A stretch of 64,000 nt of DNA from Candidatus Levybacteria bacterium RIFCSPHIGHO2_02_FULL_40_18 (GCA_001782235.1 MFOC01000007.1:86799-150798), one strand, 5' to 3'; positions 27,196-39,702 are shown, counted from the stretch's first letter. Numbers and translations are program-made. Notes: a model not told the origin generated them from the letters alone.

Positions 27196-28479
27196 CTATT
27201 TCTGAGAGGCCATGTCCATACCCATATCCGCCACAGCCATAAGAAGAAACAGAAGACCTAGCAGTCCTATCCCGCCAATTGTTTTTGCCTTTTTGATGGC
27301 GGCTTCTCTCTTTAATTTTTTTTCAGCTTTTTGTTCCGGAGAATCTTTAGGATCATCCTGCAATTCATGAAAAATAGCATTTACAGCTGTTTCAAGATTA
27401 CCGCTTTTTAATGCATTTTTTACTTCTCTTGCGGTTTTAGTGTCTACTTGTGCAGTGCGGACCTTTTCAAGATAAATTTGCATGCCCTGGTCCTGCCTTA
27501 GGTAGTCTGAAGCTTTTTCATAAAAAGATACATATTCTCTTTCCAATGCAAGCTCTCGTTCTAACTGTTTTCTCGTTTCTCCATCAAGATTTCCACTATT
27601 TAAGCTCTTCTGAATTTCTTGTACTCTACTTGAAGCTCTTGTAGAGAGCGTATCAAGATCCAAGTTCTGCATAATTTTTGCAGCGGTTTCTGGGTCAAGC
27701 AAATTTCTACCTGCGAGCGAATCTAAAAACTCTTGTTTTTGAGCTGGATCTTCAATAGTGCGTTCAGCAAACCCCCGCATGTCTTCTGTGGTTATAATTT
27801 CTGTTTCATCCGCAGCTTTTTTGCTGAGAGCATTTATATTATTTGAGTCTTTTCCTTCAAGCGCTTGTTCTCCTCCTTGGAGCACATCTATATGCAACTG
27901 GAGTAGCTCCCTTTGCCCGGGGGGCATGCGTGCCATTATTACAGAAGCAGCATCCGGGTTAGAAGTTAAAATTGATTGTTGGATTTGCTCTCGCGTTAAA
28001 GTTTCTGGGACTTGTACATTTTCATTTTCAGGATCCTGCAAGAAACAGGAAAATTTTCCATCTGCAGTTACCTCAAGGCTTTTTACAGTCATTACCTTAC
28101 CGTCTTTTGTATATTTCAAAGGGTCACTGGATTTAAATGTTAGTGCCTCACCTGTATGAGTGCCATCGCTCAAGGTTTCTATTTGCCACATTCCAAAGAG
28201 TAGATTTTTACCCTTATCAGTTTCGAGCAAATTGATTCTTTCCTGCTCTGTCAAGCCCTCGACTTCTTGAGCTGCTTGCCTCATTTCCCTGTAGACCGAG
28301 CGGCTTCCCACAGTCCCTATCTCTCTTATTTGAGTTTGCCTGGAGACTTCTCTTTCTGAAGTTCTTGATTCCTCTTGTTCAAGAGATGAGTCCTGGCGAG
28401 AAGGAGTATCTCGCTGCACTGGTGGCGGCACTACAGCTGTTGCTTCAGGGGTCGCACCTTCTATTGCGTCTGGTCCCAT
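27196..28479 (-). CDS. Tail-anchored coiled-coil protein, unknown family
   Basis: Start taken at M21 (MGPDAIEG..) to avoid overlap with the divergent gene; E/Q/K-rich helical body; C-terminal TM IGGIGLLGLLFLLMAVADMGM. Confidence 0.5.
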   Translation of the reverse strand: MGPDAIEGATPEATAVVPPPVQRDTPSRQDSSLEQEESRTSEREVSRQTQIREIGTVGSRSVYREMRQAAQEVEGLTEQERINLLETDKGKNLLFGMWQIETLSDGTHTGEALTFKSSDPLKYTKDGKVMTVKSLEVTADGKFSCFLQDPENENVQVPETLTREQIQQSILTSNPDAASVIMARMPPGQRELLQLHIDVLQGGEQALEGKDSNNINALSKKAADETEIITTEDMRGFAERTIEDPAQKQEFLDSLAGRNLLDPETAAKIMQNLDLDTLSTRASSRVQEIQKSLNSGNLDGETRKQLERELALEREYVSFYEKASDYLRQDQGMQIYLEKVRTAQVDTKTAREVKNALKSGNLETAVNAIFHELQDDPKDSPEQKAEKKLKREAAIKKAKTIGGIGLLGLLFLLMAVADMGMDMASQK

Positions 28480-28530
28480 AAACTTATCATACTTGAAAAA
28501 ACAAGCTGCTTCAAGTAATAATAGTGATAT

Positions 28531-36627: not shown

Positions 36628-39600
36628 ATGACACACGAAAATTTGACACCAAGAGACGCTATCAACTATTCTATAAATAGAATGCCAGAACCCATAATAG
36701 ATGGCCTACGAGGCGGCTCTGCCTCAAGTCGTTCAGTTCCGGGATATGATTCTTCCAGAACCGTAGATGAAATACAGGCTCAAAGAATTGTTGATGAGGT
36801 CAAATCCAAATCTTATTCTGCTAAAAGCAAATGGAGCAAAGAACAGGTTGATAAAAATGCCGGGCTTTCTGATGAGGAACGTCTTAGTCAAGCAGCTAAA
36901 ATTTTAAATCGGGAGCTTTCTCAAGAACAAAAAGACGCAGTCATTGGAACACATAAAATTAGCGAAGGCGAGATGGGAAAAGATGATAAACCTGTCAAAA
37001 TAGGAGAATACACACAGGCTCAAATTAAAAGAAAAGCCAATTCATTGAAAAAAGCAGGGTTTAATCTTGAAGAAAGGCGTGCTTTGCTTGAAAGCGGCAT
37101 TGCCGGCCTTCCTCTGGAAAGATTCGCCGCTATTAATCCTGACACATATACAGATCCTGAGATTAAAAATAAAACGGGGTTTGTAAAAACTATGGGGACA
37201 GAAGGAAACGCTGATTCGGAATTCTTACAGAATCAACTCTTTGAACTCAACTCTAGAATCGATAGGGGAACTGGGGACCTCAGAGAAGCAAGAACATTTC
37301 GGGATCAAATACAAGATCTTTTGACAGAGGCTCGTAGGCAAGAAACTGCAGAATTAGAAGAGAGAAGGCGTGCCGCGGAGGCAAGGTCTCCTACAGAGAG
37401 AAGGGGAGGCTATGAGCATCTTGAACGAACAGAGGAACAATTAAGAGCTATGACTCCTGAGGAACGTCAGAATTGGAGGGATCAAATTAAGCAGGCAATC
37501 AGAGAAGCGCCAGCCATCGATGCCTCTCGCTTCCCTGAACAACTTTTAGTAATAGCATTGAGCGATAAGGAACTTCGTGAGATGCTTCTCAATAGAATTC
37601 TTTTTAAACCCTATGAAGATACAACTGAGGCAAATATGTATAGGCTTAACTTTTACGCTGAGGGGAATCGCGACGATATTCTTGGGAAATTAGCCGAAAT
37701 AACTGATGGGAAATATGATTATTTTAAAAAACTTCAGACCGCGGTAGAGTTATTTCATGCAATGAATGTATCAACTGTCTCAGGAGACATAGAGCATTTA
37801 CTTGACTATGCTCGGCGAATAAATTTTGAACATTTTTCCTTAATGCAAGAGCTTCCAGGTCTCCCAGATGTCATGAGGCTTTATGAAGAGAAATACCAGG
37901 AGATTTTAGCAAGAGAAGGTAGAATAGCAACAGAGGGTTACAAAACATTAAAAAAAGAAGTAGAGAGAGCCTTCAATGAGATGAATGAAAAAGGGATTGT
38001 CAGAAGCGAATATGAAACGGAAAGGACTGGTGACAGGCCATGGATAATGGAAGACTGGGAAAGAACTAGGGCTATTAATGCGGGAAGAGCATTTTTTAAT
38101 ATTACCATTCGCGCAGCAGAACATATAGCAAATGGACAACTTGAGTCTGGAGGTAGAAAATGGACAGGATTTCCTCAGGAAGACGCTGTAAGACTTATGA
38201 ACTGGCCAAAATGGCTCGTTGAGAGATTTGAGGTTGCTATCCCTCGTGGAGGGCGTGCGTTTCTTGACAGAACAAGTAGAAACTACTTTGAATTTCTTGT
38301 TGAGCGCAAGCGAAAACTGGGGATAAATAGAATAGCCCAGCTTGGAGGAATGAGGGTTGATGAGCTTGAACTTGGGGCAATGTTTGGCGTAAGCGGAGTT
38401 TATAGCTCCTGGAGACTTGAGGCAATGCTATTTCCAAAGATCAAACTTGCCAATGGCCAGACACTTAGAGACTGGCTTGATGAGGAAGTCGGATATATAT
38501 CGCCGGACGGCAAGACAATTATGGCAAGAGGGAAAGACAGGCAGAGTCACTGGGTTGATAAAGGTATCTCCTTGCAGAAGCGGGCTGACTGGTTAGACCA
38601 GATTCAAGGAGATATTAAAAGCCAAGACCAGTTGCTCAAGTTTTTATCTCCTGTCATAGAAAATACAGACATTGCACTTGGTGTATTACTTAAGCAAGGT
38701 CTTACCTCAGGAGAGGTAGGATATAAGGTGAGAGAGAGAATTTGGCAAAGAGTTGCTGAAACAAATCTGCCTCTGATGATAAATTATCTTTCAAGCATTA
38801 GTGAAATGGATGATCCAATAGAGGTTGGTATAGGAGAACCTTTAAAAGGCGCACCAAAAGCTCAAAATCGCATAAGGCCAGATGACTGGACGTGCGGCGA
38901 AGAAGGGAGCGAGGAACGAAAGGAGGGAGATAGGAAGTGGAATGAGTTTAAAGAAAATGTTTTACTGCATCATGCCTGGGAAGTTAAACGCGCGGCGGGA
39001 GCAAATGTGTCAGAGGAGTCGCCTGTCCGTGATTATATTCGTGATCACCAAGATTTGATAGATAAAATTAAGCAAGAGGGGAGAGCACTTGCACCGCAAC
39101 TTGCAGATATTGTTTTTCCTTACGTTCCTTTTATGAATGACGTGCCATTTGAACTTATCGATTATGCAGGCCCGGGAGAAACATTCTACAAGAGGAGATT
39201 AGGCTCTGACCTTCCGAGCTTTAGCGCTGCAGAGCGCGCGTTTACAACCATTGTTAATAATCCGGGTGGGATAGGAGCAGAGAATGCACTTAAGGCATTT
39301 GATGAGATTGTAAAAGGAATTGAGAGTCCACAAGGGACACCGGATGCGCAGGAAAGGGTCTATCCAATGCTTTCTGCCTGGGGAGAATTTGTCCTGGCGC
39401 GTCCCGGGCATAGACAGATGATAATAAAGGCAGTTACAGAGATACTAAGAAAACCCACTTCCATTGCTCAGGAGTTTGCAGGAATGGATGCGGAATCTCT
39501 CGATGAAAATCAAATGCTGGCTGTTTTAGGAAATGCTACGAAAGCTGGAATTATAAGCCATGACCTTTACAATGAGATGAAGAAAAAAAAGCATCTGGGC

Positions 39601-39702
39601 ATTCTTTTTATCTTGTGGGCGCTTTTCCGTGATATTATTATAATGGCTCCGGCAATCGCAGCTTGGGAGATGGGTAAAGATACGATGAAGAAAGCGGCAT
39701 GA
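36628..39702 (+). CDS. Large (1024 aa) orphan protein with a C-terminal membrane anchor
   Basis: Start taken at ATG 36628 (MTHENLTPRD..); the 49 upstream track codons read through the repeat arm. R/E-rich helical N-terminal third. C-terminal TM HLGILFILWALFRDIIIMAPAIAAW. Confidence 0.6.
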   Translation: MTHENLTPRDAINYSINRMPEPIIDGLRGGSASSRSVPGYDSSRTVDEIQAQRIVDEVKSKSYSAKSKWSKEQVDKNAGLSDEERLSQAAKILNRELSQEQKDAVIGTHKISEGEMGKDDKPVKIGEYTQAQIKRKANSLKKAGFNLEERRALLESGIAGLPLERFAAINPDTYTDPEIKNKTGFVKTMGTEGNADSEFLQNQLFELNSRIDRGTGDLREARTFRDQIQDLLTEARRQETAELEERRRAAEARSPTERRGGYEHLERTEEQLRAMTPEERQNWRDQIKQAIREAPAIDASRFPEQLLVIALSDKELREMLLNRILFKPYEDTTEANMYRLNFYAEGNRDDILGKLAEITDGKYDYFKKLQTAVELFHAMNVSTVSGDIEHLLDYARRINFEHFSLMQELPGLPDVMRLYEEKYQEILAREGRIATEGYKTLKKEVERAFNEMNEKGIVRSEYETERTGDRPWIMEDWERTRAINAGRAFFNITIRAAEHIANGQLESGGRKWTGFPQEDAVRLMNWPKWLVERFEVAIPRGGRAFLDRTSRNYFEFLVERKRKLGINRIAQLGGMRVDELELGAMFGVSGVYSSWRLEAMLFPKIKLANGQTLRDWLDEEVGYISPDGKTIMARGKDRQSHWVDKGISLQKRADWLDQIQGDIKSQDQLLKFLSPVIENTDIALGVLLKQGLTSGEVGYKVRERIWQRVAETNLPLMINYLSSISEMDDPIEVGIGEPLKGAPKAQNRIRPDDWTCGEEGSEERKEGDRKWNEFKENVLLHHAWEVKRAAGANVSEESPVRDYIRDHQDLIDKIKQEGRALAPQLADIVFPYVPFMNDVPFELIDYAGPGETFYKRRLGSDLPSFSAAERAFTTIVNNPGGIGAENALKAFDEIVKGIESPQGTPDAQERVYPMLSAWGEFVLARPGHRQMIIKAVTEILRKPTSIAQEFAGMDAESLDENQMLAVLGNATKAGIISHDLYNEMKKKKHLGILFILWALFRDIIIMAPAIAAWEMGKDTMKKAA

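Follow-up and report, generated by a model that had tools for sequence, protein, structure and literature searches.

A conserved three-gene module in the type IV secretion system-like locus of Candidatus Levybacteria, with a possible accessory role on the cytoplasmic face of the machine

What are the large proteins without a family name that are encoded against the grain of a type IV secretion system (T4SS)-like locus in Levybacteria? The locus lies in a stretch of 64,000 nucleotides (nt) from Candidatus Levybacteria bacterium RIFCSPHIGHO2_02_FULL_40_18 (GCA_001782235.1 MFOC01000007.1:86799-150798), here called the window, and four of its genes are considered. Gene A (27196-28479, minus strand) is an open reading frame (ORF) of 427 amino acids (aa) from an ATG and encodes an acidic, tail-anchored protein with an isoelectric point (pI) of 4.9. 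Gene B (28531-31545, plus strand) encodes 1004 aa and gene C (31554-31901, plus strand) encodes 115 aa, starting 8 nt past the stop codon of B. Gene D (36628-39702, plus strand) encodes 1024 aa with a C-terminal membrane anchor. ORF calls confirmed these positions, sizes and strands as given in the original prediction, and the domain-annotated neighbours bore out its placement of B, C and D on the plus strand between minus-strand T4SS blocks. Its estimate of about 50 nt between the diverging genes A and B also held, with 51 nt between the two start codons (28480-28530).

In GenBank, A-D are annotated as hypothetical proteins in metagenome-assembled genomes of Candidatus Levybacteria. They are real genes, as homologues of all four occur elsewhere. 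It was found that A, B and C are one conserved three-gene module, written A|B-C, of the T4SS-like locus in Levybacteria and their relatives, and that this module probably encodes membrane-anchored helper proteins of the T4SS-like machine. A narrower reading, in which A|B-C serves the secretion machine as an accessory platform on its cytoplasmic face, is the one tentatively adopted here, at somewhat below even chances.

The extent of the B family was measured with a HMMER profile built from three B sequences and searched against 1.84 billion cluster representatives (50% identity clusters). The full HMMER search returned at least 283 related clusters at E ≤ 1e-3, with 254 at E ≤ 1e-10 and 194 at E ≤ 1e-30, and among the 150 matches listed nearly all are 900-1060 aa long and align end to end. 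A word-indexed search returned only 3 B relatives against these 283 clusters, so that a word-indexed result of "no homologues" is unsafe for fast-evolving proteins of the candidate phyla radiation. This applies to D, for which the word-indexed search gave at least 5 clusters, all Levybacteria-like, a number that is a lower bound because the same method badly undercounted B. The term "orphan" in the original prediction thus does not hold for B, or for A and C, which are co-conserved with it; D has relatives in its at least 5 clusters.

Thirteen further loci carrying B were recovered (L001 and L003-L014); degenerate-pattern scans of genome and metagenome collections gave 2 loci each, the patterns being too strict. 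Across the 13 further loci, A lies before B wherever upstream DNA is present and C lies after B wherever downstream DNA is present, and this order is kept despite B identity as low as 22-35%. Homologues of A, of ~370-470 aa, are divergent from B in L001 and L004-L014 and all have a C-terminal hydrophobic tail; phmmer detected homology to A in several loci, the seven aligned homologues being 17-24% identical to it. Homologues of C, of 106-137 aa and 35-48% identity, directly follow B in L001, L003, L004 and L008-L014 with a spacing of -4 to +44 nt. A tandem duplication, consisting of C and a more divergent C', was seen in L010 (13360-13728) and L011 (13285-13638).

The linkage of this module to secretion genes was then assessed from its neighbours. 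In the window, genes for a VirB4-like ATPase (22992-25049), a TrsD/TraC-like protein (25171-25845) and a PrgI/VirB3-like protein (25881-26954), identified by Pfam and NCBIfam matches, form the same minus-strand block as gene A. An array of four T4SS pilin genes with PF18895 matches (31902-34569, minus strand) and a 438-aa AAA+/winged-helix regulator gene with a PF00486 match (34724-36040, minus strand) lie between B-C and D, and a polytopic VirB6-like protein of 537 aa with many hydrophobic segments is encoded convergently with D (39722-41335, minus strand).

Next to the module lie VirB4, TrsD, PrgI, pilin or VirB6-like genes, both in the window and in 8 of the 13 further loci, and this conserved synteny upholds the association with a T4SS-like apparatus that had been proposed at the outset. 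L012 matches the window in a collinear run of 14 genes without a break, with VirB4-TrsD-PrgI-A|B-C, four pilins, the regulator, a large gene at the D position and TrbL/VirB6. L010, L011 and L014 have the order (peptidoglycan hydrolase)-VirB4-TraC/TrsD-PrgI-A|B-C, L013 has pilin-pilin-A|B-C-intervening sequence protein-PrgI, L001 has VirB6-pilin-(1181 aa)-A|B-C followed by jag/yidC, L007 has PrgI-A|B, and L003 has a pilin gene downstream of A|B-C. The adjacency survives three gene orders (those of L001, L013 and the window type), which speaks for functional linkage rather than frozen synteny.

Protein identities between the window and L012 are 56% for VirB4, 47% for the TrsD-like protein, 46% for the regulator, 41% for C, 40% for the PrgI-like protein, 39% for the VirB6-like protein, 28% for B and 25% for A, with none in the D slot. 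Against L001, B is 34% and the VirB6-like protein 30% identical. B thus changes at about the rate of the machine's membrane parts, and A more quickly; the closeness of B to the VirB6-like protein in conservation is the behaviour of a machine part. No conjugative-plasmid origin is visible, as 72,556 plasmids searched by tblastn with B and D yielded zero matches.

The contexts of the module also bear on whether it belongs to the secretion machine at all. In L005, L006, L008 and L009 it lies beside pth, galT-like and glycosyltransferase genes with no T4SS gene within the stretch recovered, and because of these contexts an alternative is kept in which A|B-C is a T4SS-independent, Microgenomatia-type module with a membrane-tethering, cytoskeletal or division-related function, found near T4SS genes only through a shared place in the conserved origin-proximal region. 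The long helical rod and hairpin of B are generic for tethers, and the window locus adjoins dnaA/dnaN as L001 adjoins jag/yidC. However, the T4SS adjacency persists across three gene orders, and the four non-T4SS contexts come from one related group in which three are near-identical. Independence from the machine is accordingly considered quite improbable.

Expression of the module appears to be organised around the spacer between A and B. On the plus strand, a sigma-70-like element TTGAAA-18-AATAAT lies at 28493-28522, and on the minus strand TTGAAG-17-TATGAT lies at 28514-28486. The two elements are interdigitated, and their -35 boxes are the halves of an inverted repeat, ACTTGAA...TTCAAGT. 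Across the 12 loci that could be aligned, the spacer measures 50-55 nt wherever the start is unambiguous, and TA.TTGA and TCAA.TA are invariant. The plus strand of these loci carries a TTGAAA-like box, a gap of 17-18 nt and a TATGAT-like box 8-9 nt before the ATG of B, and the minus strand carries a TTGA-type box, 17 nt and a TATGAT/TATTAT box 6 nt before the ATG of A. From these sequences we infer two interdigitated divergent promoters giving leaderless or nearly leaderless mRNAs; the A and B-C mRNAs look leaderless because both -10 boxes are 6-9 nt from the start codons. The conserved promoter-like pair implies co-regulated expression of A and B-C, and the inverted repeat could be an operator. 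A recurring operator was considered and rejected, as outside this spacer the motif is no more frequent in the window than expected by chance.

None of the four proteins had a significant match in Pfam, NCBIfam or PHROGs, and a profile search of Protein Data Bank (PDB) sequences with alignments of A-D gave chance-level matches only. Homology to housekeeping families was thus not seen in these collections, and the original statement that none of the proteins resembles VirB8, VirB9 or VirB10 agrees with the absence of Pfam and NCBIfam matches. The Walker A pattern [AG]x4GK[ST] is absent from A, B, C and D, with VirB4 as a positive control, and no P-loop Pfam match was obtained; membership among VirD4/TcpA coupling proteins or other secretion ATPases was rejected for all four. 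Membership in VirB8/PrgL/TraM was rejected, as the combination of an N-terminal transmembrane (TM) helix with an extracytoplasmic NTF2-like alpha+beta domain was not found, and membership in VirB9/VirB10 (TrbI) for lack of a sequence match and of an N-terminal hydrophobic segment. VirB6/TrbL, including extended VirB6, was likewise rejected: the polytopic core of at least 5 TM helices is missing, B having one marginal hairpin and A and D one C-terminal segment each.

The topology of the proteins was deduced from their hydrophobic segments. A sequence scan of A-D found no N-terminal signal peptide or hydrophobic segment, no lipobox and no LPxTG motif, unlike the pilins, PrgI and VirB6-like proteins of the same locus, which have N-terminal hydrophobic segments. 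Protein A has a disordered N-terminus rich in Pro and Glu, helical regions and a small region rich in beta structure; its one strongly hydrophobic segment spans residues 401-419 of 427 (Kyte-Doolittle hydropathy, KD, 2.16) and follows a Lys/Arg run. The anchor as a whole is encoded at 27217-27285 (minus strand; residues ~399-421), with KKLKREAAIKKAK directly before it, and the tails of seven A homologues have a median maximum KD of 2.03. D has its membrane anchor at residues ~989-1013 (39592-39666, plus strand), with KKKK just before it, the hydrophobic segment being residues 992-1010 of 1024 (KD 2.15), again with a Lys/Arg run on the N-terminal side. C has no hydrophobic segment and is soluble. 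Each of the large proteins had been described as having a single anchor, which stands for the C-terminal segments of A and D; the hairpin of B, said to be central, lies at residues ~237-283 of 1004 and is marginal. Given the missing signal peptides and the C-terminal or hairpin anchors, the bulk of A, B and D is expected to face the bacterial cytoplasm, unless the T4SS exports them.

This topology bears most directly on the role that had been suggested for these proteins, namely that A, B and D are the VirB8/9/10-equivalent structural core of a monoderm apparatus, an envelope-spanning scaffold. In its favour, these are large helical proteins with membrane anchors whose genes lie in the locus, and VirB8 homologues are rarely found in Patescibacteria (PMC12102498). 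Yet with no signal peptide and with C-terminal or hairpin anchors only, no known insertion route could carry hundreds of residues to the outside, and there is no NTF2-like or VirB9/10-like match. The suggestion fails on topology, cytoplasmic bulk being expected, and is judged very improbable.

An envelope-crossing role is better suited to proteins of the type of X738, a bitopic 738-aa protein encoded directly beside VirB4 (20765-22981, minus strand) with one central TM segment at residues 379-397. The corresponding position is taken in L012 by a weak homologue of 1002 aa and in L014 by an Amidase_3 protein of 1114 aa. In Southlakia the positional counterpart is SEML1_0007, given in the published material available for that locus as essential, 1113 aa long and with a DD-peptidase fold. 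Since counterparts of X738 carry peptidoglycan-hydrolase domains, X738 is a better envelope-crossing or wall-opening candidate than A, B or D.

To describe B further, an AlphaFold2 model was built from an 80-sequence alignment. Its mean predicted local distance difference test (pLDDT) score is 85.8, with 674 residues at or above 90, and low confidence is confined chiefly to the N-terminus and residues 244-271 (pLDDT <50). The domain order is an N-terminal alpha/beta module, the hairpin, a conserved membrane-proximal domain (~280-450), a rod of variable long helices (~450-700) and a conserved, helical C-terminal domain (~700-1004). The model places an alpha/beta and helical domain after the Gly/Ala-rich segment and contains long helices at 485-541, 609-660 and 808-848 (57, 52 and 41 residues), and the alignment profile has conservation peaks at residues 126-175, 276-400, 426-450, 701-750 and 901-950. 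In the long variants of B (1100-2000 aa) the extra length comes solely from insertions near residue ~400 or from duplication of the helical unit at 650-870, and a scan of 15 of them for informative domain fusions found no Pfam domains. No solved or viral structure resembling the model was found beyond generic coiled coils; AhlB/SmhB, of the alpha-helical pore-forming toxins (ClyA/AhlB/SmhB/YaxB), gave a weak coiled-coil match (probability 0.3-0.44, E>0.1). Structure prediction was hence informative for B, which has no structural relative, and not for D, whose model from 5 sequences is unusable (pLDDT 45.8), its mostly helical outline being unreliable.

The hairpin is the sole hydrophobic stretch of B. 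It is Gly/Ala-rich, is encoded at 29239-29379 (plus strand; residues ~237-283) and consists of two ~20-residue segments flanking a turn GPE, with a marginal maximum KD of 1.45. An equivalent uncharged stretch was found in all 80 aligned B relatives, with a median length of 42 aa, 45% Gly+Ala, a mid-segment Pro in 56 of 80 and a median maximum KD of 1.58; the hairpin is therefore conserved as a feature and not as a sequence. Other proteins of the locus exceed this value, with 2.35 for PrgI, 3.0 for the VirB6-like protein, 2.88 for the pilins and 2.03 for the A tails. A hairpin would place both ends of B on the same side of the membrane.

The same hairpin is the starting point of the main rival reading, in which B, A and the D-slot proteins are trans-acting substrates exported by the T4SS-like machine and inserted in the membrane of the host bacterium. 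C would be a dedicated partner or chaperone keeping B soluble, B and A would be a translocator- or pore-like pair, and the D-slot proteins would be host-specific effectors. B has the traits described for T4SS transmembrane effectors, that is, moderate hydrophobicity, two segments, a short loop and N-in/C-in topology (PMC12981334), and tail-anchored effectors with strongly hydrophobic C-terminal segments are known (PMC12981334). As A-D have no Sec signal, any extracellular role would require the T4SS. The small partner gene C is tightly coupled to B, and the D slot shows non-orthologous replacement, which is common in effector slots. A small partner with a hairpin/coiled-coil protein and a single-TM protein is an architecture that recalls the translocator operons of type III secretion systems (T3SS).

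Compared with T4SS and T3SS transmembrane effectors and translocators, B thus shares the hairpin, the coiled coils, the missing Sec signal and the small partner gene, but has no sequence or fold similarity to them and shows far wider conservation and a more constant position than typical effectors. The fixed architecture of B, its position in the core locus and its VirB6-like conservation over deep divergence are unusual for effectors, and its C-terminus is a confidently folded, conserved helix and not a disordered signal. No likeness to known pore formers was seen beyond the weak coiled-coil matches, and there is no coupling protein in the locus. The proposal of C as an acidic chaperone is weakened, as the pI of C homologues spans 4.7 to 8.6 and is not consistently acidic. 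Export of these proteins as substrates is thus possible, though doubtful on this balance. A more elaborate version is unlikely: B, kept soluble by C and delivered via the pilus-bearing machine, would insert its hairpin together with tail-anchored A into the host membrane, and the D slot would supply effectors. If true, this would be the first known T4SS translocator or conduit, and a route for ultra-small epibionts to the cytoplasmic material of their hosts.

Gene D differs from the module in its variability. In L002, also from Levybacteria, a D homologue is likewise convergent with the VirB6-like gene, and the anchor motif LW..RD......P.I is conserved in 5 of 5 family members. The invariant Arg-Asp pair and the Pro split the anchor segment into two ~11-residue halves, a pattern by which the anchor may be re-entrant or interaction-prone rather than a plain TM helix. 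In L012 the D slot holds a 1288-aa protein without a hydrophobic segment, and in L001 a 1181-aa tail-anchored protein. Homology of D to these two was rejected, with probabilities <1% and a best Smith-Waterman score of 65, inside the shuffle range (51 ± 6, maximum 73), and no relation of the 1181-aa and 1288-aa proteins to each other was detectable. A relation of D to B was also rejected (hhalign probability 8%). The large gene beside virB6 is conserved as a position, not as a sequence. Since D fills a slot that holds unrelated large proteins elsewhere, it would be a lineage-specific accessory or cargo protein.

At both plus-strand gene ends, stop codons meet convergently. Those of C and the adjoining pilin gene (31901/31902) are 0 nt apart, those of D and the VirB6-like gene (39702/39722) are separated by 19 nt, and a similar junction occurs in L001 (5104/5105). 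No terminator-like hairpin was found at the C/pilin and D/VirB6-like junctions, where the spacing leaves no room for one.

In the preferred reading, that of a cytoplasmic-face accessory platform, A, B and C would together be attached to the membrane where the VirB4/TrsD/PrgI/VirB6 inner-membrane complex faces the cytoplasm. There the platform would arrange the ATPase or bring in cargo, the locus itself lacking a coupling protein. The fixed architecture of B, with its conserved membrane-proximal domain and length-variable helical rod, fits a tether or scaffold. Such a function would resemble that of tail-anchored DotU/TssL-type subunits. The genes for DotU/IcmH of type IVB and TssL of type VI secretion systems lie within the secretion locus, and their products, cytoplasmic for the most part, serve the membrane complex as essential accessory subunits. 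TssL, which is DotU-related, is a C-tail-anchored, essential secretion-system subunit (PMC3426401). A and D share with these proteins a single C-terminal anchor with a Lys/Arg-rich N-terminal flank, an agreement in architecture only; A, which is acidic and partly disordered, has roughly double their length and D roughly four times that length, and A-D gave no match to the DotU family models of Pfam and NCBIfam at E ≤ 0.1.

A second functional parallel to the platform would be the large, helical and hydrophilic domains that VirB6-like proteins of Saccharibacteria carry as fusions. Extended VirB6 proteins (RvhB6 of Rickettsiales, TraG of the F plasmid) have large hydrophilic, mostly helical domains whose role is undescribed (PMC12857230), and the annotation table of the Southlakia locus lists SEML1_0011 and SEML1_0013 as essential, ~1000 aa long and with T4SS/VirB6-like annotations and large helical ARM-like domains. 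D and its slot-mates stand directly beside a short VirB6-like gene; B and D, unlike extended VirB6, are not polytopic, and no homology to the VirB6-like protein of the window was seen. At the level of that table, the Southlakia locus has the ~1000-aa VirB6-like/ARM-like proteins at comparable positions instead.

Several observations weigh against this platform, whose contacts with VirB4, PrgI or VirB6 are hypothetical. The family hairpin KD of 1.58, against 2.3-3.0 for the resident membrane proteins, corresponds to the profile that has been reported for secreted transmembrane effectors (PMC12981334). Leaving aside X738 and the D slot, no protein of the locus is less conserved than A (23-26%), and the four loci with pth, galT-like and glycosyltransferase flanks show no T4SS gene near the module. 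Structural similarity of B to known T4SS subunits was not found, and the Saccharibacterial T4SS locus, as tabulated, has no obvious counterpart of A|B-C.

Further members of the locus were described alongside. The VirB6-like protein is 36% identical (E 2e-87) to an L012 protein with a weak TrbL Pfam match, and homologues also occur in L001 and L002. The PrgI/VirB3-like protein carries a C-terminal carboxypeptidase-regulatory-like beta-sandwich domain through which it reaches 357-405 aa (window 25881-26954; L010-L014); this extension is kept in all related loci and is unusual among VirB3-type proteins. The 438-aa regulator combines an N-terminal AAA+/STAND-like region with a C-terminal OmpR-type winged helix and has a counterpart of 46% identity in L012 (15885-17228), being thus a conserved member of the locus, and from its domains it may be the regulator of the locus. 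A gene of the "23S rRNA intervening sequence protein" family, a four-helix bundle, lies inside the T4SS-like locus under two different gene orders, in the window (36104-36532, minus strand) and in L013 (6423-6788). A 157-aa ORF at 39699-40172 (plus strand) overlaps the VirB6-like gene on the other strand and has a Pro/Ala/Ser-rich low-complexity translation; it is probably not a gene. Beyond the locus, an AdoCbl-II (adenosylcobalamin) riboswitch (45704-45777, plus strand) lies just 3' of a ribonucleotide reductase gene (43169-45673) and before a 183-aa ORF whose L002 counterpart has a Cob_adeno_trans domain, and a tmRNA gene follows further on (48499-48854, minus strand).

The type of locus is already known. 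Patescibacterial T4SS-like loci are related to the monoderm MPF-FATA conjugation machinery, with pilin arrays, no relaxase and often a position beside dnaA (PMC12102498; Wang et al., 2023, PMC10633639). The window has the same hallmark genes as those described by Quinonero-Coronel et al. (2025, PMC12102498) and in PMC10633639, with VirB4, TrsD-like, PrgI/VirB3-like and VirB6-like genes and a VirB2-like pilin array next to dnaA/dnaN (17554-20249), which lies just upstream of the T4SS-like genes. Library scans of the locus proteins found no relaxase or coupling protein in the window locus, and coupling-protein genes are rarely near virB4 in Patescibacteria (PMC12102498). The novelty lies in the A|B-C module with its promoter arrangement and in the variable slot of D, none of which was found described in the searched literature on patescibacterial T4SS; from the catalogued components (PMC12102498, PMC10633639) the A|B-C and D-slot proteins are absent, such genes being shown only as neighbours without annotation.

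In the one patescibacterial species in which it was tested, the T4SS-like machine is essential for growth as an epibiont, yet the role of this machine in Patescibacteria has been called completely unknown (PMC11665869, PMC10633639). Published inventories list only classical-like T4SS parts, and to these are added here a widespread three-gene module and a variable large-gene slot beside virB6. Both provide concrete candidates for the missing cytoplasmic or coupling functions of the machine, or for its long-sought substrates.

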